Of a DNA stretch of 64,000 nucleotides, positions 38,234-52,004 are shown one piece after another (positions within the stretch are counted from its first letter, which is position 1; the number at the start of each line of letters is the position of its first letter). The notes under the pieces were generated by a model. It did no database searches, was not told the origin of the DNA, and saw nothing but the letters and a program-made list of their open reading frames with translations. Origin of the DNA: an uncultured Pseudomonadota bacterium (lineage in GTDB: Bacteria; Myxococcota_A; Polyangia; Fen-1088); assembly GCA_963847705.1 (NCBI GenBank), contig CAWKBC010000027.1, positions 800,001 through 864,000 of the forward strand, in the 5' to 3' direction. The position numbers and the translations under genes are program-made.

Positions 38234-41200
38234 CTACCAGCCGGCGACGTGGAGGCCGCGGGGGACGGCCTTGCGGCGCGGCGGAACGGGCTGGACGGCG
38301 TAGGCGGTCTTGGCGGCGGCCACCGGCTCGGTCTCGATGGTGAAGTAGAAGAGGCGCAGGAAGTTGTGGCGGCCCACCCGCTCGTGGCCGAAGAGGCCGC
38401 CCAGGACCTCCCACATGAAATCGCCCGGCCGTTTGACGCCCGAGTCGTAGAAGGGGAAGACGTAACGGCGGTAGGTGCCGTCGGGGCGGCCGTCGGCCAT
38501 CAGTCCTTCGCTGTGATAGTAGTTCGGGAAGACCCAGGTCCCGACGTGGTTGGCGCTCTGGCGGCGGACGAAGAAGGGGAAGACCACGGTCGTCCGATCG
38601 GGGCCGCGCTTGAAGTCCCAGAGCAGCGGGAAGCCGACCATGCTGACGTCGGTCGGCGTGCTGTGCCGGTAGAAGAGCAGCGGCAGGATGACGGTGGTGG
38701 TGTCGTGGGTGACCTCGTCCGCGAAGCGCCCGAAGATCGGCAGCAGCATCGTGGTGCGCCCGAGGTGGTACTCGTGCAGGTCGTAATAGAGCGGCACCCC
38801 GACGTACGCCGAGGTGGCGATGTCCCGGTAGTGCCAGAAGAGCACCAGCGTGCTCGAGAGCCCGCTCTCCGGGTTCCCGCGCGAGACATGCAAGAGCGGC
38901 GGGATGACGGTGGTCGTGGTCTCGGTCGCCTTGTTGGTATGGCTGAAGACCAGCGGCGCCAGCATCGAGAACGAGCTCTTCGGGCTGTCGGTGTGGAGGA
39001 TGGGACCCGCGTACCAGAAGTGCGACGGGCCGCGCCGGTGATAGCCGGCGAGCAAGGTGTAGAACGAGAGGTGATCCTTCCCGCTCCCCTCGTAGAAGAG
39101 GGGCAGGAGCGCCTGCGAAGCGTCGCCGTTGGCGTCGTTGCGCGAGTACCAGGCCAGAGGCAAGAGGCCGCGTGTCCGCTCGGACTGGTGGTGCGACCAG
39201 TAGAAGGGACCGGCCAGGGTCGAGGAGCTGTCGGCGGCCGTGCTGGCGAAGTGCCAGAAGATCGGAAAGACGATGTCGCTGCGCCGGTCCTTGTTGACGT
39301 CCGACCAGTAGATCGGGAAGAGCGCGTTGACCGTCCCGGCCGGATCGCGGTCGTGGAAGAAGAGCAGGCAGGAGAACCAGTCCCGGGTCCCGTCGGCGCT
39401 CTTGCGCTGGAAGAGCAGAAGCGGCGGCACGATGGTCATCGTGCGCACGCTGTTCTCGGCGTAGGCAAACAGCGGGAACAGGCCGACCAGGTGGGCGTCG
39501 GGGGTGGAGCGTTCGAAGTAGGGGCCGACCACGGTCGTCTGCCGCCCGCCGAACGAGGAGTGCCAGAAGATCGGCAGCAGCGTGTCGACCCCGTCGCCGT
39601 TGGCGCGCCGCATGCGGAAGTAAGAGGGGACGATCCAGGTGTCGCTCTCCTTCGCGTCGGCGTAGTGACCGAAGAGCGGGATGATCCCCTGGCTCTTGTA
39701 ACCGGGACCCTCCACGCGGAACCAGGGGCCGACCTGCGTCAGGTGCTGGCCGTCGCTGCGGCGCAGGACGTCCGCGTAGAGAAGCGGAACGACCCCCGCG
39801 TCGAAGTTGCTGTTCTTGAACCAGACGTAGGGGCCGACGAAGCCGCCGCTGCCGTTCGGCGTGTGCACCGAGGCGCCGAGCAAGCTGGCGAAGAGGTGCG
39901 TCTGTGCGTCGCGGTGATAGTAGAAGAGCGGGAAGACGGTCAGGCTCTTGGCGTCGCTTCCACCCGGTCGCGCGCCGCGCCGGTAGTAGAGGAGCGGAAA
40001 GAGGCCATCGGTCGTCTCGCCGCCCCAACGCTGGTGCCAGTAGGGGCCGACGACGGTCGTCGACTTGTCGGCCGCCCGGTCGGCGAAGTGAAAGAAGAGC
40101 GGCAGCAGCGCGAAGTGCGAGCGGTCGTGGCCGATGCGCCAGTAGAGGAGCGGGATGATGGGGCCGATGGCCACGCTGGTCCCGTCGCGGTCGCGCTCGA
40201 CGAACCCCAGCGGCGTGACGGTGGCGCTCTGCCCCTGGCGCTCACTGGCGGTGTGAAAGAAGAGCGGGAACTGCACGGCGTAGCTCTCGCCGTCGTGATG
40301 GCCGTAGAAGAAGAGCGGCGTCACCGCGCCGTCGGCGCCGTGCGGATCCCGGTGTGCGTAGTAGAGCGGGAACAGAACCGTCGTCGATGACCGCTCGCTG
40401 GCGAAGTGCCAGTAGAGCGGAAAGACCACGCCGTGACCGCGGCCGGCATTCTCGCCGAAGTAGGCGATCGGAAACAGGCCGCCGCTCCAGCCGCCGTTGG
40501 TGAAGTGACGCCAGTAGGCCGGGCCGACGATGGTGGTGGTGTCGCGCGGACCGGAGCGATGCGCGAAGAAGGGAAAGAGCGCCGTCGCGGTGGAGCCGGT
40601 CGCCGCGTCCCAGAAGTGCCAGAAGAGTGGGAAGAGGGAGGTGGTCGATCCCTGGGGATCGGTCCGCCGGTAGAACAGCAGGGCGACGAGCCGGCCCATC
40701 GCATCGGCGGTGCGATCTTCGTGGCTCAGGTAGAGCGGGGTGAGCATCATTCGCTCGCCGCCCCGATCGCGGTGGGCGAAGGAGAGAAGCGGGACCGCCA
40801 CCCAGGTGCGGGTCCCGTCGCGGTCGTCACGGCTGTAGCCGCCCAGCGGCGTCACCAGGTTGGTGGCCAGGCCGTGCTCCGCGCGATCCCAGTAGAAGAA
40901 GGGGACCAGCAGGCGGTGGGCGCGGCCGGTCTTGTCGTCGCCGCCGGTCCACCAGAACGGTGGGAACGCGTTGAAGTACCAGCCACCCTCGCGGATGTGG
41001 ACGTACGGAACGGCCACCGTCGTGTTCGAGGTCGGGCCGCGAAAGCTCCAGACCAGCGGGAAGACGATCGTGGTGCCGTCGTCCTTCCCTTCGAAGTCCC
41101 ACACCAGCGGGAAGAGGACGTGGTAGCTCGAGTGCGCCGTCTCATCGCCGCCCCACCAGTAGAGCCAGGCCACCGAGCGGCTGTACTCGGGCCCGTCACG

Positions 41201-42075
41201 ATGGCTGTACCCGAGCCAGGTCAAGAGGCGGTAGCCGGTCTTGTGGCCGTTGTAATAGAAGAACGGGAGGGCCAGCAGGTTGGCGTCGTCGTCGTGCCGC
41301 CAGTAGAAGCTCAGCGGCAGCGCGAAGGTGAAGGCGTGGCTGGCCGTGCGGGTGGAGAAGAAGATCGGGAACCCGAGAATCGCTCGAATCGGGTGGGCGA
41401 GCGCCACCACCAGTAGAGGTAAGCAGCCGCCCCGAAGGAGCTCGAGGTCTCGGGGTTCTTGAAGCGGAGCGTGCCGAGGATGGGCGCCGCCCAGCTTCCG
41501 GTGCCCGACGCATAGAAGAGCGGAATCACCCCGAAGGAGTGCGTGTCGCCCTGGTGCCCGCTGACGATGGGGCCGTACCAGGTGATGAGGCTTCGCTTCG
41601 CGCGGTCCTCGAACCGCCAGTAGAACGGCGCGAAGATCAGGGTGTCGCTGGTCGGGCTCCAGTAGTGCCAGTAGAGCGGCGCCACGACGCGGTAGCCGGT
41701 GGTCCCTTTTTGCGACCAGTAGAGGCCGAGGAACTCGCTGAACCCGCCGTCGCGGTAGTAGAGGTAGGCGACGTTGGTCCGCAGCTGGATGGGCGTGCAG
41801 ACGTTGGACTGACAGATGTTGTCGCCCGTGCAGTCCTCGTCGCGCCGGCAGCTCTGCGGGGCCGGCGTGCTGGCGGTTGGAGCGGGCGCGGCTGCCGCTG
41901 GCGCGGCCGGAGCATCTGCAGCCACCTTGCGGAAGGGATCGAGGCGCAGCGGCCTTCCGGAGGCGTGGCTTCCGGCCGCGTGGCCGAACGGATCCGGCGC
42001 CCCCGCGCGCGCCCTTCCGGCAACGCAAACGAGGACGACCAGTGAGGCGACGAGGACGAGAGGGCGGCGGTTCAC
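38234..42075 (-). CDS. Very large secreted aromatic-rich repeat protein, ~1279 aa after removing two inserted bases at 41377-41390
   Basis: Signal peptide (VNRRPLVLV...ARA), C-x5-C-x5-C-x4-C motif, then dozens of FPLFW/PLFY/GPYW repeats in both frames; the 2-nt offset between frames matches two GAATC sites. Confidence 0.8.
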
Positions 42076-44062: not shown

Positions 44063-45187
44063 ATGCAAAAGCTCCGCGGTGCGTTGATCGGCTACGGATT
44101 CATCATGGAGAAGGGGCACGCGGCTGGCTATCAGCAGCGTGGTGACGTGGAGATCGTGGCGATCGCCGACATCTCCCCCACCCAGCGGGCCGTGGCCCAG
44201 GCCGCCTGGCCGAACGCGCGTCTCTATGGTGACGCGCGCGCGCTGCTGGCGGCCGAGGCCGACGAGATCGACTTCGTCGACATCGCCACCCCGCCCAGCG
44301 ACCACGCGGAGATCGCCCTCGAGGCGCTGTCGCTCGGGCTCCATGTCCTGTGCGAAAAGCCGCTGGCCGCGACGATCGACGAGGCGCGGTCGATGCTCCG
44401 CCAGGCGGTGAAGTCGGAGCGGGTCATCTTCCCCTGCCACAACTACAAGCACGCCCCGGTGATCAAGACGGTGCGCGGCATCCTCAAGACCGGCCGCATC
44501 GGCAAGGTCCACCTGGTGACGTTGCAAACCTTCCGCAACACGCACGCCAAGGGGGTCACCGGCTGGCGCACCGACTGGCGGCGCGAGCGCCGCTTCTCGG
44601 GCGGCGGCATCGCCATGGACCACGGCAGCCACACCTTCTATCTGGCGTTCGAGTGGCTGGGGTCGTACCCGACCGGCATCACCGCGCGGGCGGCCACTCT
44701 CGGTCCGTTCGACACCGAAGACGACTTCGCCTGCAGCCTGCGCTTCCCGACCGGCACCGCCTCGGCGCACCTGTCGTGGAACGCCGGGGTGCGCAAGGTG
44801 CTCTACACGCTGCACGGCGAGCACGGCGCCATCCGCGTGGAGGACGACGACGTCGAGCTGGCGGTGCAAGAACGTGGCGTGGGCGGCGCGAGTGGCGCCG
44901 GACCCACGACCTGGACCTTCGAGCGGCAGGCGATCTCGTCCGACTGGATGGACTCCAGTCATGTCACCTGGTTCAACTCGCTGTTCGACGACTTCAAGGC
45001 GGCGATCGCCAAGCGTGAGTTCGTGGGCCGCGAGGCGGAGGAGGCCTTCCTCTGCGTGCAGCTCATCTCGACCGCCTACGCCTCGGCCCGCGACGGCAGC
45101 CGCGAGCTTCCGCTCTCCGGCCTGGCCGCGCTGGCCGGCGACGACGTTTCGGACCGGATTTTGCGAAAGGACGGCGGGCGTGTCTGA
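44063..45187 (+). CDS. Gfo/Idh/MocA-family NAD(P)-dependent dehydrogenase
   Basis: ALIGYGF, DIATPP..H, HVLCEKP, GGGIAMDHGSH; exact start uncertain. Confidence 0.9.
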   Translation: MQKLRGALIGYGFIMEKGHAAGYQQRGDVEIVAIADISPTQRAVAQAAWPNARLYGDARALLAAEADEIDFVDIATPPSDHAEIALEALSLGLHVLCEKPLAATIDEARSMLRQAVKSERVIFPCHNYKHAPVIKTVRGILKTGRIGKVHLVTLQTFRNTHAKGVTGWRTDWRRERRFSGGGIAMDHGSHTFYLAFEWLGSYPTGITARAATLGPFDTEDDFACSLRFPTGTASAHLSWNAGVRKVLYTLHGEHGAIRVEDDDVELAVQERGVGGASGAGPTTWTFERQAISSDWMDSSHVTWFNSLFDDFKAAIAKREFVGREAEEAFLCVQLISTAYASARDGSRELPLSGLAALAGDDVSDRILRKDGGRV

Positions 45188-46025
45188 CCTCTACATCGCG
45201 ATCGCCGTGACGAGCTTCTTCGTCGCGGCTCTCCTCGTCTACTTGATCCGCTCGGCCCTGGTCGGCCGGGTCCGCCATGCGCGCACCGAGGCCGACGGCG
45301 GCAGCGTGTTCGTCAACAAGACGACGATGGAGATGGTCTACTGGCTCATCGATCCGATGATCTCCTTCATCGCCGCCCTGCGGATCACGCCCAACATGGT
45401 CACCCTGGGCTCACTGATCCCGGCCGCGGGGGCGGGCGTGGCCATCGGGTGTGGCTGGTTCGGTCTGGGGGCGACGCTGGCTGTTCTGGCGGCCTTCGGT
45501 GACATCATCGACGGCCTGCTGGCCCGCAAGATGGGCCTCTCATCGGACGCAGGCGAGCTGGTCGATGCGGCAGTCGATCGCTACGGAGAGATGTTCTTCT
45601 TCGGAGGCCTCGTCTACTACTACCGCGATCACGATCAGGTCCTGTTCATCGTCCTGGCCGCCATCATCGGGTCCTTCATGGTCAGCTATACGACCGCCAA
45701 GGCCGAGGCGATGGGCGTCCCGGCCCCGCGCGGCGCCATGCGCCGGGGCGAGCGCGGCGCTTACCTGATGACCGGCGCGGCCTTCACGCCGCTGGCGAGC
45801 GCGTTGTTTGCGCGTTCGCCGTCGCTGGCTTTGCGCGAGATGCCAATCCTGCTGGCGCTGTCGATCGTGGCGGTGGTGGCGAACATCTCGGTCGTGCAGC
45901 GGCTGCTGGCCATCGCCACGCTGCTCCGCGAGCGCGACGCGGCGGCCAAGAGCAAGGCGTCAGCGGCGGCGTTCGACGACGAGGCCATGGCCACGAAGCC
46001 CGACGTCCCCGTCGGGATGGTTTAG
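45180..46025 (+). CDS. CDP-alcohol phosphatidyltransferase (PI/PIP-synthase-like)
   Basis: ITPNMVT; DIIDGLLAR-x8-G-x3-D-x3-DR signature; SYTTAKAEAMG...GAMRRGER. Confidence 0.9.
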   Translation: MSDLYIAIAVTSFFVAALLVYLIRSALVGRVRHARTEADGGSVFVNKTTMEMVYWLIDPMISFIAALRITPNMVTLGSLIPAAGAGVAIGCGWFGLGATLAVLAAFGDIIDGLLARKMGLSSDAGELVDAAVDRYGEMFFFGGLVYYYRDHDQVLFIVLAAIIGSFMVSYTTAKAEAMGVPAPRGAMRRGERGAYLMTGAAFTPLASALFARSPSLALREMPILLALSIVAVVANISVVQRLLAIATLLRERDAAAKSKASAAAFDDEAMATKPDVPVGMV

Positions 46026-46032
46026 AGCCGGC

Positions 46033-46476
46033 TTGACGGATCGACCGCCAGACCGCTCGGCGGAGGGCGCGCCGAAGGGGTTCTGGCAATGGATGCGCCA
46101 CCACGCGGCGGCGATCGCCGCCACCGGCGCCGACTACCTGGTGATGATCTCCTGCGTGGAGCTCCTGCACCTCAGCCCCGTGGCGGCCACGCCGCTGGGA
46201 GCGCTGTCAGGCGCGGTCACCAACTTCACGCTGGGGCGGCGGTTCACTTACAAGAAGACCGACGTCCCGGTCCCCAGCCAGGCCTGGCGTTACGCGCTCG
46301 TGTCGGGCGCCAGCCTGGGACTGAACACGGCCGGTGAGTATCTCTTCCAGCACGTCCTTCACATCGAGTATCTCTTGGCCCGCGTCATCAGCTCCGTGAT
46401 CGTGAGCAACGTCTGGAACTACCCGATGCAGCGATATTTCGTATTCTCAGCGCCACCAGCGGTCAAGAACGCCTGA
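46033..46476 (+). CDS. GtrA-family small membrane protein (putative flippase)
   Basis: Four hydrophobic segments; ATGADY, VTNFTLGRRFTY, WNYPMQRYFVF; start uncertain. Confidence 0.82.
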   Translation: MTDRPPDRSAEGAPKGFWQWMRHHAAAIAATGADYLVMISCVELLHLSPVAATPLGALSGAVTNFTLGRRFTYKKTDVPVPSQAWRYALVSGASLGLNTAGEYLFQHVLHIEYLLARVISSVIVSNVWNYPMQRYFVFSAPPAVKNA

Positions 46477-46498
46477 GCGTCCGCCCCCCTCGCCCCCC

Positions 46499-47863
46499 AT
46501 GAACCAGAGCCAGCCCAAGAACCAGAAGGCCTCCATCGTCACCGCCGTCCCCGGACCGGAGAGCCAAGCGCTCCGTGCTCGAGAAGACCTCCACGCCGCG
46601 CCCGGCCTGCAGGGCTACGCCCTCATGGCGGGGATCGTCGTCGAGGAGGGGCGCGGAAGCGCGGTCACCGACGTCGACGGGAACACCTACCTCGACTTCA
46701 TCGGCGGCATCAACGTGAACGCGCTCGGGCACAGCCACCCGACGCTGGTGCAGGCGGTGCAGGAGCAGGCGGCCAAGGTGTCGGTCGGCTCGTTCACCTC
46801 GCGCGCGCGTGTCGAGCTCGGCGAGCGGCTGGCGGCCAAGCCGCCGGCGCCGGGCGTGCACCGGCTGCAGCTCTATTCGGGCGGCGCGGAGGCGGTCGAG
46901 AGCGCGCTCCGCCTGGCCAAGTGCCACACCGGCAAGTACGAGATGGTCAGCTTCTGGGGCGGCTTCCACGGCAAGACCATGGGGGCGCTCTCGCTGATGG
47001 GATCGACCTTCAAGGACAAGCTCGGCCCGATGGTGCCGGGGTCCCATCAGATCCCCTACGCCGACTGCTACCGCTGCCCGGTCGGCCTTTCGTACCCGAG
47101 CTGCGGCGTCGCCTGCGCCGAGATCGGACGCAAGCAGGTCAAGACCGCCGGCGCCGGCGAGATCGCGGCGGTGATCGTGGAGCCGATGCAGGGGACGGCC
47201 GGCAACGTCATCCCGCCGAAGGAGTTCCTGCCGGCGGTGCGCGCGCTGGCCGACGAGGTCGGCGCGCTGCTCATCGCCGACGAGATGATCACCGGACTCG
47301 GGCGCACCGGGAAGCGCTGGGGGCTGGACCACACCGGCGTGCGGCCGGACGTGGTGACGATCGGCAAGGCCTTCGGCGGCGGGTTCCCGCTCTCCGGGCT
47401 GCTCACCACCGACGAGATCGCCCAGGCCAAGCCCTGGGGGAATCCGTCCGGCTCGTCGTCCAGCTATGGCGGCAACCCGCTGGGGGCGGCCGCCGGCGCC
47501 GCCGCGCTCAAGATCATCGACGAGGAAGAGCTGACGGAGAATTCGCGCGTCGTGGGCGCCGCGCTCAAGCGCGAGCTCGAAGCCTTCGTCGATCGCTACC
47601 CGTTCGTCGGCTTCGTCGACGGGGAGGGGCTCCTCATCCGGATGGAGCTGGTCAAGGACAAGAAGACCAAGGAGCCACTGCCGCGCCGGGTGACCGAGCG
47701 GATCTTCACCGAGGCGGTCAAGCGGGGGCTGCTCACCATGGCCTACTCGGCCAGCTTCCGGATCCAGCCGGCGCTCACCATCGACGAGGCGACGGCCAGG
47801 AACGGCGTCGCCATCCTGCGCGAGGTGTTCGACCTCGTCGAGCGCGAACGGCTCTGGCAGTGA
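46499..47863 (+). CDS. Class-III PLP-dependent aminotransferase
   Basis: DVDGNTYLDF, SGGAEA, FHGKT, IVEPMQG, IADEMITGLGRTG, PDVVTIGK, YGGNP. Confidence 0.93.
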   Translation: MNQSQPKNQKASIVTAVPGPESQALRAREDLHAAPGLQGYALMAGIVVEEGRGSAVTDVDGNTYLDFIGGINVNALGHSHPTLVQAVQEQAAKVSVGSFTSRARVELGERLAAKPPAPGVHRLQLYSGGAEAVESALRLAKCHTGKYEMVSFWGGFHGKTMGALSLMGSTFKDKLGPMVPGSHQIPYADCYRCPVGLSYPSCGVACAEIGRKQVKTAGAGEIAAVIVEPMQGTAGNVIPPKEFLPAVRALADEVGALLIADEMITGLGRTGKRWGLDHTGVRPDVVTIGKAFGGGFPLSGLLTTDEIAQAKPWGNPSGSSSSYGGNPLGAAAGAAALKIIDEEELTENSRVVGAALKRELEAFVDRYPFVGFVDGEGLLIRMELVKDKKTKEPLPRRVTERIFTEAVKRGLLTMAYSASFRIQPALTIDEATARNGVAILREVFDLVERERLWQ

Positions 47864-48429
47864 AGCGGGCGCCCCCGCCGAACGCCGATCGCGTGGACGG
47901 AGCCGCGCTCGTCCCGGCGGGGTCCGTCGCGGGGGGGCTGGGGGACCCTCCCAGGGTCCCCCAATTGAAAGGTTGGCGCGACACCACCGCGCACGTCATC
48001 TCGGTCTGGTTCGGCTGCGGCCACGTGCCCTACATGCCGGGGCACGCGGGGACCATCGGCGCGATCCCGCTCTACCTGCTGGTGCGCCCGCATGGCCCCT
48101 GGGCAGTCGCCGCGGCGGCGCTGGTGGTCACGCTGGTCGGCATCTGGTCCTCTGGCATCGTCGAGCGCCGGCTCGGGTACAAGGATCCGCAGATCGTCTG
48201 CGTCGACGAGGTGGCCGGCGTGCTCGTGACCTGGATCGCCGCGCCGCCGACCTGGCGCGCGCTCATCGTCGGTGGGCTGGCGTTTCGTCTCTTCGATCAG
48301 ATCAAGCCCTGGCCGGCCCGCGCGGCGGAGCGCCTGGGCGGCGGCGCCGGCGTGATGCTCGACGACGTGGCCGCCGGCGTCTGGGGCGCCGCGCTGGTCC
48401 TCGCCGGCCGCGCCCTCGGCTGGCTCTAG
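47860..48429 (+). CDS. pgpA: Phosphatidylglycerophosphatase A family lipid phosphatase
   Basis: PGHAGT, DPQIVCVDEVAG, FRLFDQIKPWP, GVMLDDVAAG; GTGA overlap at 47860 (alternative start TTG 47965). Confidence 0.9.
   Translation: MKRAPPPNADRVDGAALVPAGSVAGGLGDPPRVPQLKGWRDTTAHVISVWFGCGHVPYMPGHAGTIGAIPLYLLVRPHGPWAVAAAALVVTLVGIWSSGIVERRLGYKDPQIVCVDEVAGVLVTWIAAPPTWRALIVGGLAFRLFDQIKPWPARAAERLGGGAGVMLDDVAAGVWGAALVLAGRALGWL
47927..47965. repeat. REP-like element related to the 25252-25377 repeats
   Basis: TCGCGGGGGGGC followed by hairpin TGGGGGACCCT-CCC-AGGGTCCCCCA; compare TCGCGGGGGGC-GCGGGACCCT-TTC-AGGGTCCCG. Confidence 0.65.
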
Positions 48430-49349
48430 CGCAAAGGCTCCGCGCCTCCAGTTTCCCCGGAGGCTACCCCAACGACCGCCCCACGGCCGGCGGGTCGGCG
48501 CTCCCGGCGCGACAGCACCAGGGCGACGCCGCCGAGCACGGCCATTCCGGACAGCAGCAAGCGGGGGGAGACCTGCTCGTGCAGCAACACCACGGCGCCG
48601 GCGGCCGCGATCACCGGAACGCTCAGCTGGACGATCCCCGCCTGCATCGCGGTCAGCCCGCGCAGAGCCCGGTACCAGACGGCATAGCCGAGCCCCGAGG
48701 TGACGGTCCCCGAGAGCGCCCCCAGTCCGGCCCCACGGGCGCTGAGGTGGAGCGCGCCCGTCTGAGTTGCGGCGACGACCAGCACCAGCGGTGTTGCCCA
48801 AAGAAAGCTGCGCGCGTTGGCCGCCAGCGGCCCCAGCGGATCGGTGGCGCGCTTCCCGGCCAGCGAGTAGACGCCCCAGGCGACACCGGCGGCCGCCATC
48901 AGCGCCGTTCCGACCGGATCGGGGCGGGTCGCCGCCGGCAGCACCAGCCAGGCAAGGCCGCCCGCTGCCAGGGCCAAGCCGGTCCAGACGCGGAGGGTGG
49001 GGCGCTCGCCGCGCGCCAGCCCCCACCCGATCATGGTGAGCTGCACACAACCGAACAGGACCAAGGCGCCGGCTGCGGCGCCGATGCGCAGGTAGGCGAA
49101 CGAAAAGGGGACCGCGTAGCCGAACAGGGCCAGCGGCCCGACGATGCCGGGCCCGCGCAGCGGCCGCCAGCCCCCCGCGCGGACCCGCACCAGGAGGGCC
49201 AGGATGGCCGCACCGCTGCCGAGGCGGATGGCCGTGTAGCTGGTGGCGTCGATCAGATGGCCGGCCAGGGCCATCCGGTTGAGCAGCGAGTTCGCCGCGA
49301 ACGCCACGAGCGCGAGCAGCGTGAGCAGGATCGTCTCGGGGGCCCCCAC
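48426..49349 (-). CDS. DMT/EamA-family transporter
   Basis: About 10 TM segments; AFAANSLL, IRLGSGA, SGLGYAVWY, QLSVPVIAA; TACCCT 6 nt before GTG 49349. Confidence 0.9.
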   Translation of the reverse strand: MGAPETILLTLLALVAFAANSLLNRMALAGHLIDATSYTAIRLGSGAAILALLVRVRAGGWRPLRGPGIVGPLALFGYAVPFSFAYLRIGAAAGALVLFGCVQLTMIGWGLARGERPTLRVWTGLALAAGGLAWLVLPAATRPDPVGTALMAAAGVAWGVYSLAGKRATDPLGPLAANARSFLWATPLVLVVAATQTGALHLSARGAGLGALSGTVTSGLGYAVWYRALRGLTAMQAGIVQLSVPVIAAAGAVVLLHEQVSPRLLLSGMAVLGGVALVLSRRERRPAGRGAVVGVASGETGGAEPLR

Positions 49350-49394
49350 AGCCGCAGGGTACAACGCCCGGGTGCTCGCCGGTCGCGCACCCGG

Positions 49395-52004
49395 CTAGGA
49401 GCCGAGCTCGACGCGCGGCGGCCCGGGGGTCTCGTCGCCGTTTCCGTTTCCGTTGGCGCCCACCGTGGTGGCGCTGTCCCAGGGGATCTCGGGGAGCTTG
49501 GGGCTGGAGCGGGGGCGGACCAGCATCAGCACCGCCGGAAGCACGATGACCGCGGTGGTCAGACAACAGAGCTCGCCGAACACCGCCAGGAGCCCGAACA
49601 GAAACAGGCCGACGTTCTGGGCCACCAGCAGCGACGAGTAGCCGATCACGGTGGTCAACGAACAGAGGCCGACCGCGCCGCCGGTGCCACGCACGGCGGC
49701 CACCACGTCGCGGCCGCCGTCGCGCAGATAGCGCGCCATCACGTTGACCGCGTAGTCGACGCCGATGCCGAAGGTGATGGGGAAGGCGATGAAGTTGACG
49801 AAGTTGATCTTGATCCCCAGCTTCATGGTGATCGCCAGCAGCCAGAGGACGCCGACCATCAGCGAGCCGATGACGAACGGCGTGGCCAGGCTCTTCCTGA
49901 AAATCAGGAGCACCGTGGCGACCACGCCCAGGAACGCCAGCAGCGACGCCAGCGGGCCGTCGCGCACCATCGACGAGATGATGTCGAACGACAGCGCCGG
50001 CCCGCCCGCCACGCGCCCCGGCCGCCCGCCCAGCGCGACCGGAGCCTGCGCCGCGGCGCGCAGCTCGCGGACGAAGGTGGCGATCGTCTCGCCCCGCCAC
50101 CAGCTCTCGGCCGGATTGGGATAGACCAGCACCGCCCGTCCGACCGATCCGTCCCGCTCGCGCAACCCGCGCGTGATGACGTCGGGGACCTCGTCGGGAC
50201 GAATGGGCGCGGGGTTCGGCGGCGCATCCTCCGGGCCGATCAGTCGGTCGAGCTTCTTCCGATCGGTGTCCGTCATGTTGGAGCGGACGTGAGGCGTCAT
50301 CTTGCGGCGGATGACGGCCAGCTCCACCTGCTTCTCCGGTTCGTCGGGCGGCACGACGTCGTCGTAGGTCCGGATCGAAGCGATCATCGAAGCGAGCGGC
50401 GGGTGCGAGGCCTGGTCGCGCAGCCGTGCCGTCACCGCCCGCGCCTCCGCCTCCGAGTCGGTCAGGATCACCGTCGGCGTCAGGTAGCGGCCGAGCAGGG
50501 TGTCCATCCGCCTCCCCCAGTGTCCTTCGCCCGACTTCCAGGTGTCGCGCCGCCGCAGCCGCGAGAAGTCGAACTCCAGCTGGTCGCGCCCGAAGTGCCG
50601 CACCTCCCAGACCGCCCCCAGCGTCAAGACGAGAGCGGCACCGGCGAACACCAGCGGGCGGGCCCCGACCGCGCGGGCGATCGCTCCCACCAGCCGCCCC
50701 GAGACGCGCCGCACCCGGGGCGCGTGCTTCCCGCGGTCGAGCCAGCTCAAGAGCGGCGGCATCAGCAGCACGGTCGTCCCCCAGGCGAACGCCATCCCGA
50801 GTCCGCCAATGACCCCGAACTGCCGGAAGCCGCGGAACTGCATGGCGACCAGCGACGCGTAGGCCACGCCGGCCGCCAGCGCTGCCGACAGCGTGCCCCA
50901 GCGGGTCCCCCACAGCGCCACCACCAGCGCCTCCTCGACCGTCTTCCCCTGGCGCCGCGTCTCCAGGTAGCGGGCCAGCTGGATGATGCCGAAGTTGATC
51001 CCGTTGCCGATGATGATCGACCCCAGGAACGCCGTGTTCGAGTTGAGCTCGGTGATCCGGAACGGCGGCAGGCTGGCGAGGCCAAAGGCGTAGACCGCGG
51101 CCAGCGCCAGCGGCAGGAACAGCGCCGGGATGCTGCGCGTCCAGCCGTAGAACAGGACGATGGCCAGCAGCACGGCGACCACGACCAGGACCGAGGAGAG
51201 CGTCAGGTCCTGGACCAGCGCCGCCATCTCCTCGGCCGAGATGGCGACGTCACCTGTCAACCCGACCTGCATGCCGGGGGCGTAGGCGCCGGTCCCTCCC
51301 AGCGCCCGCATATCGGCCTCCACCTTACGGATGAGAGTCCCGGCCTGCGCGGCGCTGGTGGAGAAGCCGCCGACCTCGATCAACATCAGCGTCAGGCCGA
51401 GCTGGCGGTTGGAGAAGCGGTTCCCCTCGAGGTCCCCGCCGCCCAGCTGGCCGGCGTACTTGTGCTCGAGGTCGCTGAAGTCGAGCGCCGGGGCCGGCTC
51501 GTCGTCATCCAGCAGCGTGTCGGTCTTCTTGGCGTACTCCCAGTGAAGGCGGGCCTCGACCCGCTCCCGGATCGTCTTCAGATCGTCGAGCGCCATCAGG
51601 CTGCCGGCGTGCTTCTCGACGAAGGCCCGCTCCGCCGCGTAGCCGGTGCGCACGTCGCTGACCTCGCTCCTGGGGTAGCGGCGGACCCGCGCGGCGAGAT
51701 CCTCGAGAAACCGCTCGCCGGCCGACAGGTGGTCGGGGGCGCCGACGTCGACGATGATCCCCAGGTACTGCAGCCCGGCCATCCGACTTCGCAGCTCCTG
51801 GATGGCCACCACGCTGGGGGCGTCGCGGGGCAGGAGCTCTTCGATGTCGCTGCGCAGATGACCGTAGAGGGAGATGGTCCGCCAGACCGCCGGAATCGCG
51901 GCGCAGAGCGCGATCGCCCAGAGCAGCGCGCCATGGCGAAGCGTCCAGGCGACGAAGCGGCGGGTACGGGGCCCGGGCGCGGGTGAAAAGGAGTCGGGGG
52001 ACAC
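49395..52004 (-). CDS. MMPL/RND-family lipid transporter
   Basis: Two repeats of (1 TM, large periplasmic loop, 5 TM); GNGINFGI and GIGVDY motifs. Confidence 0.9.
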   Translation of the reverse strand: MSPDSFSPAPGPRTRRFVAWTLRHGALLWAIALCAAIPAVWRTISLYGHLRSDIEELLPRDAPSVVAIQELRSRMAGLQYLGIIVDVGAPDHLSAGERFLEDLAARVRRYPRSEVSDVRTGYAAERAFVEKHAGSLMALDDLKTIRERVEARLHWEYAKKTDTLLDDDEPAPALDFSDLEHKYAGQLGGGDLEGNRFSNRQLGLTLMLIEVGGFSTSAAQAGTLIRKVEADMRALGGTGAYAPGMQVGLTGDVAISAEEMAALVQDLTLSSVLVVVAVLLAIVLFYGWTRSIPALFLPLALAAVYAFGLASLPPFRITELNSNTAFLGSIIIGNGINFGIIQLARYLETRRQGKTVEEALVVALWGTRWGTLSAALAAGVAYASLVAMQFRGFRQFGVIGGLGMAFAWGTTVLLMPPLLSWLDRGKHAPRVRRVSGRLVGAIARAVGARPLVFAGAALVLTLGAVWEVRHFGRDQLEFDFSRLRRRDTWKSGEGHWGRRMDTLLGRYLTPTVILTDSEAEARAVTARLRDQASHPPLASMIASIRTYDDVVPPDEPEKQVELAVIRRKMTPHVRSNMTDTDRKKLDRLIGPEDAPPNPAPIRPDEVPDVITRGLRERDGSVGRAVLVYPNPAESWWRGETIATFVRELRAAAQAPVALGGRPGRVAGGPALSFDIISSMVRDGPLASLLAFLGVVATVLLIFRKSLATPFVIGSLMVGVLWLLAITMKLGIKINFVNFIAFPITFGIGVDYAVNVMARYLRDGGRDVVAAVRGTGGAVGLCSLTTVIGYSSLLVAQNVGLFLFGLLAVFGELCCLTTAVIVLPAVLMLVRPRSSPKLPEIPWDSATTVGANGNGNGDETPGPPRVELGS

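Follow-up and report, generated by a model that had tools for sequence, protein, structure and literature searches.

A window of 64,000 nucleotides (contig CAWKBC010000027.1, positions 800,001 to 864,000 of the forward strand, assembly GCA_963847705.1) from an uncultured bacterium of the Polyangia (Myxococcota_A) contains a five-gene operon at window positions 44063-48429. This operon probably combines an inositol-lipid module with a dehydrogenase and aminotransferase step that would turn inositol phosphate into amino-deoxy-inositol phosphate, giving an amino analogue of phosphatidylinositol (PI). The main product would most likely be phosphatidyl-amino-deoxy-inositol, with the head group passed to ceramide in some relatives. 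The pathway is supported by gene content, by linkage, by the cassette behaviour of the dehydrogenase and aminotransferase genes, by the fold and residues of the phosphatidylinositol-phosphate (PIP) synthase, by the co-variation of its residue Glu126, and by gene fusions. The operon encodes the following proteins.

44063..45187, + strand: Gfo/Idh/MocA NAD-dependent dehydrogenase (DH), 374 aa; PF01408 (E 6e-23), PF22725 and PF02894
45180..46025, + strand: PIP-synthase-type CDP-alcohol phosphatidyltransferase (PIPS), 281 aa; PF01066
46033..46476, + strand: GtrA-family membrane protein, accessory; PF04138
46499..47863, + strand: class III pyridoxal phosphate (PLP) aminotransferase (AT) of a dedicated subfamily, 454 aa; PF00202 (E 9e-97)
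47860..48429, + strand: PgpA-family lipid phosphatase; PF04608

A preliminary description of this DNA had reported five tightly packed genes of these families on one strand, and both the open reading frames and the Pfam matches confirm it. The genes overlap by 8 nt at 45180 and by 4 nt at 47860, and the remaining gaps are 7 and 22 nt.

Conservation of the gene set

The locus survey comprised 80 GTDB relatives of the AT (loci L013-L092), many of them cut by contig ends, and partner genes were searched with tblastn. The DH was found around 63 of these relatives, the transferase around 62, GtrA around 39, and PgpA around 21, with five of the DH matches being distant (32–35% identity). Clustering of the neighbouring genes at the same loci placed myo-inositol-phosphate synthase (MIPS) at 11, a PAP2_3 protein at 23, and an MMPL protein at 27. 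Gene order and orientation vary widely, and the DH, AT, and synthase remain together. The co-occurrence of DH, transferase, GtrA, and PgpA with the AT exceeds chance, which bears out the earlier suggestion that the DH and AT accompany lipid genes elsewhere. The fullest operon, MIPS-DH-PIPS-GtrA-AT-PAP2_3-PgpA-MMPL in one run, is present at L030, L034, L065, L250, and L252. AT relatives that carry names (75–90% identity) are mostly from Polyangia or Myxococcales metagenome-assembled genomes, and NCBI-named orthologues occur in the cultured Anaeromyxobacter oryzae (WP_248362242.1) and A. paludicola (WP_248342819.1). Two loci whose AT proteins are identical to those of A. oryzae and A. paludicola (L166, L167) carry the DH, a Glu-type synthase, GtrA, and PAP2_3.

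MIPS is absent from the window, as described previously, but a full-length MIPS gene, its activity assigned by family, was found on another contig of the source genome (G000:C14). MIPS was also detected in 48 of 50 AT-bearing genomes, which were taken from the 80 after those with an in-locus MIPS had been excluded. Together with the 11 in-operon copies, these results lead us to reject the earlier proposal that the DH/AT pair stands in for MIPS. Because MIPS is present in the genome and often leads the operon, the pair is better viewed as an addition, whose substrate would most likely be inositol phosphate and not a free sugar or dihydroxyacetone phosphate (DHAP). Of the aminated cyclitol or sugar (phosphate) head group first proposed, amination thus remains the best reading, and the free sugar and DHAP become the less likely substrates. 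In a phylum-wide sample of 251 genomes, 157 carry MIPS, 10 the AT, and 9 the DH; all nine DH genomes are AT-positive and all ten AT genomes are MIPS-positive. These co-occurrences are given as patterns without p-values, the related genomes not being independent.

The DH/AT pair behaves like a removable cassette, judged by gene content and linkage. Three loci (L144, L145, L147) are MIPS-PIPS-(GtrA)-PAP2-(PgpA)-MMPL operons with neither DH nor AT, and a fourth (L146) is alike and also has no MIPS in view. Neither AT nor DH was found in the genomes of these four loci, which are 97–100% complete, and their synthases nest within the AT-linked clade at two places in a quick tree. In a family-level sample of 81 genomes, 18 carry the AT and 18 carry a distinct synthase orthologue; 17 of the latter are AT-positive, and the exceptions are partial or lie at contig ends. 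Most AT-positive genomes of this sample keep a second, ordinary PIPS-like paralogue.

The second PIPS-like gene of the source genome (G000:C25; L103 7029-10678, - strand) has Ala at position 126, is flanked by genes for a GT4 glycosyltransferase and an LPG_synthase_TM protein, and likely serves an ordinary or glycosylated PI route. Genes for PMT_2-family glycosyltransferases recur near the module (L017, L021, L022, L024, L061), and their products could possibly decorate the head group further.

The PIP synthase and Glu126

By fold and residues, the transferase belongs to the PIP-synthase type, as had been predicted from its SYTTAKAE and GAMRRGER motifs. Its top NCBIfam matches are three PIP or archaetidylinositol-phosphate synthase models (95–102 bits), all below their cut-offs of 170, 180, and 350. 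These models were built for other lineages, so a score below the cut-off lowers the case for an equivalog but not for a similar function. In Foldseek, ranks 1–12 are PIP synthases (E ~1e-7 to 1e-6), whereas PgsA (E 0.013) and Pss (E 0.059) are far weaker, and PIP synthases are also the best sequence matches in the PDB. A plain PgsA was rejected (TIGR00560, 24 bits against a cut-off of 109).

The four aspartates of the CDP-alcohol phosphotransferase motif (D108, D111, D129, D133) are invariant among 27 aligned sequences. R134, S169, R192, and R241 are invariant or nearly so and correspond to R94, S132, R155, and R195 of Mycobacterium tuberculosis PgsA1, which are reported to bind the phosphate of inositol phosphate (PMC6506517, PMC4634129). 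Their retention makes a phosphorylated acceptor likely.

AT-linked and unlinked synthases are completely separated by one column only, residue 126: all 78 linked sequences have Glu there and none of the 35 unlinked ones does. Same-contig duplicates, fragments <200 aa, and L057 (masked residues) were excluded before these tree counts, and L183 was left unclassed. The same separation was seen in the first set (65/65 against 0/22) and in the family-level set (18/18 against 0/12). Among 80 metagenome loci, all 54 readable synthases have Glu at this position, with some contigs repeating the genome set. The synthases of the four AT-less operons have Ala, Lys, or Gln instead. In M. tuberculosis PgsA1, the position of Glu126 is held by Ala86, one helical turn before Ala90, and mutation of Ala90 to Tyr is reported to impair PgsA1 activity, presumably through a mis-positioned inositol ring (PMC6506517). 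An acid at this position would suit a protonated amine, acting as its counter-ion. A second position, Lys135 of PgsA1, possibly contacts the ring (PMC4634129) and is Thr or Ser in 56 of the 78 AT-linked copies. A change of acceptor is suggested by Glu126 and by the absence of Lys135.

The aminotransferase and its fusions

The AT scored below the cut-offs of all 25 listed NCBIfam models, the best 25 of 69 matching families, with its best model reaching 356 against a cut-off of 552. GabT (TIGR00700, 277 against 507) and ArgD (TIGR00707, 277 against 410) were both rejected, and the motifs differ as well: the AT has FHGKT and QGTAG where GabT, ArgD, and ornithine aminotransferases have FHGRT, with arginine, and QGEGG, with glutamate. 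The AT is thus no GabT or ArgD equivalog by these models and motifs; a GabT- or ArgD-type enzyme is what the preliminary description had named as incompatible with its proposal. The PLP lysine K290, the aspartate D261, and the donor-binding arginine R421 are invariant among 21 aligned orthologues; we take R421 to be the arginine that usually binds the carboxylate of the amino donor. A search of the ESM Atlas returned generic aminotransferase clusters only.

A profile search of 1.84 billion representatives retrieved two PIPS-AT fusions (P0297, P0306) from two unrelated clusters, and both keep the Glu at 126 and the motifs of the AT subfamily. The P0306 cluster contains three full-length members on two contigs, which makes a calling artefact unlikely. 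A search with the N-terminal part of P0297 returned only P0297 and missed P0306, so the fusions number at least two.

The AT is also found in a second type of module. Orthologues (53–55% identity) occur at L078, L081-L085, L087-L091, and L093 in modules of the CDP-inositol type, and in the Binataceae loci and L093 the AT lies among genes for a CDP-alcohol phosphotransferase, HAD phosphatases, a nucleotidyltransferase, and a probable ATP-grasp protein. The AT is therefore associated with each of the two known routes to inositol lipids. In the Binataceae loci, a conserved 273-aa protein with no Pfam match (L078 7131-7949, L093 8135-8968) is encoded between the nucleotidyltransferase and AT genes. 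This protein has a weak RimK/ATP-grasp match, and its motifs appear to us to resemble those of ATP-grasp inositol phosphate kinases.

The dehydrogenase

The DH is a typical member of the Gfo/Idh/MocA family, and its structural neighbours include GenD2, KanD2, WlbA, and levoglucosan and inositol dehydrogenases, at 19–24% identity. Inositol 2-dehydrogenase (IolG) was rejected as an identity, with 63 bits against the cut-off of 355 for TIGR04380. Profile and fold searches single out no substrate for either the DH or the AT. In the only AT-positive, DH-less genome of the 251-genome sample, the PIPS and AT genes are followed immediately by a radical SAM/SPASM gene (L094 6997-8019, - strand), with BtrN as its best PDB match (E 3e-12). 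BtrN is an aminocyclitol dehydrogenase, which is a weak hint that the L094 gene product may substitute for the DH as oxidant. Related radical SAM genes were also seen close to L021, L024, and L219, three loci that do have the DH.

Proposed pathway and alternatives

In the proposed pathway, the unlinked MIPS would convert glucose-6-phosphate into D-myo-inositol-3-phosphate. Next, the DH would oxidise one hydroxyl of the inositol phosphate to a ketone, C2 being the simplest guess for the ring position since it is adjacent to the C1 hydroxyl, the group attacking CDP-diacylglycerol (CDP-DAG), and the AT would convert the ketone to an amine. A co-adapted PIP synthase, with Glu126 as the putative counter-ion, would transfer the phosphatidyl group from CDP-DAG; PgpA may take off the phosphate, by analogy with BT_1525 of Bacteroides thetaiotaomicron; and the MMPL protein may export the lipid, which is likely a zwitterionic analogue of PI. 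In relatives with a BT_1522-like PAP2_3 and genes resembling those of ceramide synthesis, the head group may be handed on to ceramide. Since clear orthologues of these were not found in the source genome, its end product is more likely a glycerolipid.

Several points weigh against this pathway. Its chemistry is read from sequence, linkage, and fold. Both the DH and the AT lack close relatives of characterised function; the DH stands about as near to glucose-fructose and levoglucosan dehydrogenases as to inositol dehydrogenases, and the nearest characterised kin of the AT are ornithine and GABA transaminases and racemases (~35% identity). The link between Glu126 and the AT comprises two to three independent contrasts (sign test p 0.5), and no mention of Ala86 was found in the accessible parts of the literature. 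The Lys135 position is still Arg in 22 of the 78 linked copies, and the change from Lys135 to Thr was rejected as a pathway marker, for in independent pairs it tracks lineage and not the AT. The AT occurs with no module gene in view at L035 and L075, and PIPS or DH is missing nearby at L017, L020, L022, L026, L029, and L031. MIPS is common in the phylum regardless, and related genomes do not count as independent cases.

Four other explanations were considered. The one that survives best, unlikely as it is, holds that the DH and AT aminate another phosphorylated polyol (glucose-6-phosphate to kanosamine-6-phosphate, in the manner of NtdC/NtdA, or an amino-alditol phosphate from a ketose phosphate, in the manner of the azasugar enzyme GabT1), with MIPS cyclising the product or the transferase using it directly. 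This would agree with a DH fold as near to hexose 3-dehydrogenases as to inositol dehydrogenases. However, where the DH/AT pair has been lost, the synthase is still found in a MIPS operon and differs at one diagnostic residue, which makes an inositol-like acceptor probable. MIPS itself has no AT-linked column (13 in-operon copies and the source genome's own against four from AT-less operons), which fits amination after cyclisation, and the AT misses the azasugar aminotransferase consensus in the by-eye comparison described below. In similar comparisons, PAP2_3 showed no AT-linked column (control set n=8) and PgpA one weak column (control set n=5).

It is quite improbable that ordinary PIP or PI is made first and that its head group is then modified by the DH and AT at the inner leaflet. 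In favour of this order, all the phosphate-binding residues of a PIP synthase are kept, and an AT fused to a membrane enzyme would also sit at the membrane. But the gain of Glu126 with the pair and its loss without it would then go unexplained, as would the second ordinary synthase in many genomes, and the AT also joins the CDP-inositol-type module. Slightly less credible again is a salvage role, in which the pair would return environmental inosamines to inositol or alter the ring stereochemistry, leaving the final lipid non-aminated. Both reactions are reversible in principle and Gfo/Idh/MocA enzymes are mostly catabolic, but the conserved neighbours include no recurring uptake system and no recurring genes of iol catabolism, MIPS is co-operonic, and Glu126 is left unexplained. 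Least probable of the four is that the PLP enzyme, instead of being a transaminase, has another role in lipid turnover as a lyase or racemase. The distant matches of the AT do include racemases, isoleucine epimerase, PbfA, and ethanolamine-phosphate phospho-lyase, but all of these lie far below the family cut-offs, the strict pairing with a hydroxyl dehydrogenase fits ketone transamination, and R421 is invariant.

Phosphatase, export, and ceramide-type genes

PgpA is predicted to remove the phosphate of the head group, as BT_1525 does from PIP, and Anaeromyxobacteraceae loci have a HAD phosphatase in its place. GtrA had earlier been assigned the flipping of the lipid. The window GtrA is of the same family as BT_1524 of B. 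thetaiotaomicron, whose knockout reportedly showed no lipid phenotype (PMC9246714), and with GtrA at 39 of the 80 loci, a flipping role is unsupported. Downstream of the operon and on the opposite strand lie two transporter genes.

48426-49364, - strand: EamA transporter gene, between pgpA and the MMPL gene
49395..52004, - strand: MMPL/HpnN-like RND transporter; PF03176

The window MMPL shares 51–55% identity with the MMPLs of relatives in which this gene and the operon run in the same direction (L030, L034, L036, L044, L065, L097), against 33–39% with paralogues in its own genome. The MMPL/HpnN-like protein is likely the exporter of the module, its gene being inverted here and separated by the EamA gene. 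No EamA gene was seen at the same place in the close relatives mapped.

At many Anaeromyxobacteraceae loci, AT-DH-MMPL runs continue into serine-palmitoyltransferase-like (SPT-like), GNAT, and epimerase-family genes, all of which score below curated cut-offs. We read these three genes as a presumptive ceramide pathway. It is possible that L167, L170, L171, and L173-L176 represent a complete island for sphingolipid synthesis and export. PAP2_3, MlaC, and outer-membrane efflux protein genes were also observed near the AT-DH-MMPL runs. One PAP2_3 homologue of related loci was scored and reached 152 bits against a cut-off of 480. In the source genome, which is 85% complete, no clear orthologues of the SPT-like, GNAT, and epimerase-family genes or of PAP2_3 were found, the sole match to a BT_1522-type enzyme being a 25% identical protein on contig C32.

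Comparison with known systems

The closest known system is BT_1522-BT_1526 of B. thetaiotaomicron (PMC9246714). The window shares the PIP synthase, GtrA, and PgpA-family phosphatase with it, and MIPS lies elsewhere in the source genome; in many relatives MIPS and a BT_1522-like PAP2_3 lie inside the operon, and the fullest operon contains all five families. In contrast, the DH, class III AT, and MMPL exporter are additions in the window module, the window synthase has Glu126 and, with 102 bits, stays below the BT_1523 model's cut-off of 350, and BT_1522 has no clear counterpart in the source genome. A putative alternative cluster of Bacteroides (Phocaeicola) vulgatus comprises a nucleotidyltransferase, a CDP-alcohol phosphotransferase, and a HAD protein (PMC9246714). 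The Binataceae loci and L093 have these three families together with AT orthologues (53–55%) and often also a related dehydrogenase. The architecture of this CDP-inositol cluster differs from that of the window, and the pathway itself is only proposed in the published account.

Compared with actinobacterial PgsA1/PIPS (PMC6506517, PMC4634129), the window synthase has the same fold, the D-x2-DG-x2-AR...G-x3-D-x3-D motif, and residues equivalent to R94, S132, Y133, R152, R155, and R195, but differs in Ala86 to Glu, Lys135 to Thr, Arg137 to Lys, and Pro153 to Gly.

For the amination step, aminosugar and aminocyclitol biosynthesis provide the nearest parallels. The transaminase NtdA of the Bacillus kanosamine pathway is DegT-type, whereas the window AT is class III, as are GabT1 of azasugar and ValM of validamycin biosynthesis. 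NtdC and NtdA oxidise and then transaminate glucose-6-phosphate, and with NtdB the three enzymes oxidise, transaminate, and dephosphorylate a phosphorylated polyol, as proposed here (PMC8788734). In the kanosamine pathway, however, the product is a soluble aminosugar, with no lipid step (PMC8788734). GabT1 and ValM are similar to the proposed AT in acting on a sugar-phosphate or cyclitol ketone, but they serve secondary metabolites (PMC8382821, PMC12041759). The aminotransferase of the azasugar three-gene cluster was rejected as an identity for the AT, since in a by-eye comparison with the consensus in PMC8382821 only the final Cys-x-Arg-Cys region agrees.

Surroundings of the operon

The glyA gene lies divergently on one flank of the operon. 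At 38237-41410 (- strand, reaching upstream to ~42028) is a gene for a >1000-aa protein with repetitive aromatic-rich motifs and no Pfam match, which is conserved beside glyA and a weak DUF4878 gene in ~10 Polyangia loci. A ~75-nt GC-rich repeat with a strong hairpin lies in frame inside the 5' end of pgpA (47887-47961). It adds 20 codons relative to the close relatives L207 and L208 and has at least 100 blastn matches genome-wide. A promoter and terminator scan gave no signal exceeding that of shuffled sequences, and a plasmid search gave just distant matches (37–38%). One soil metatranscriptome contained 6% of the words, on contigs that are mostly <95% alike and carry neither strand nor level, which amounts to no expression evidence.

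Implications

The proposed pathway extends a known one, that of bacterial inositol lipids, and its predicted product is undescribed in the literature searched. No amino-inositol lipid and no such gene set was found there, most subscription journals lying outside the search. The AT family is abundant in soil metagenomes, with 7275 clusters at E ≤ 1e-80 among 8000 scored, a threshold that may take in non-orthologues. Because the cultured A. oryzae and A. paludicola carry the AT, the prediction is directly testable by lipidomics.

With moderate confidence, we propose that phosphatidyl-inosamine and inosamine-phosphoceramide are the products of a dedicated pathway spread across myxobacteria, Bdellovibrionota, Gemmatimonadota, and Binatia. 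It would apply aminoglycoside-type chemistry to inositol phosphate, be toggled by a cassette of two genes and a single residue of the synthase, and deliver MMPL-exported lipids. An amino-inositol lipid is isomeric with phosphatidyl-hexosamine and would easily be misassigned as such in mass spectra. Glu126 would offer a one-residue handle on acceptor choice by CDP-alcohol phosphotransferases. If the prediction is true, these bacteria would make a head group of which no report was found, one that turns an anionic lipid into a zwitterion, changes the surface charge, and provides a free amine open to further substitution.

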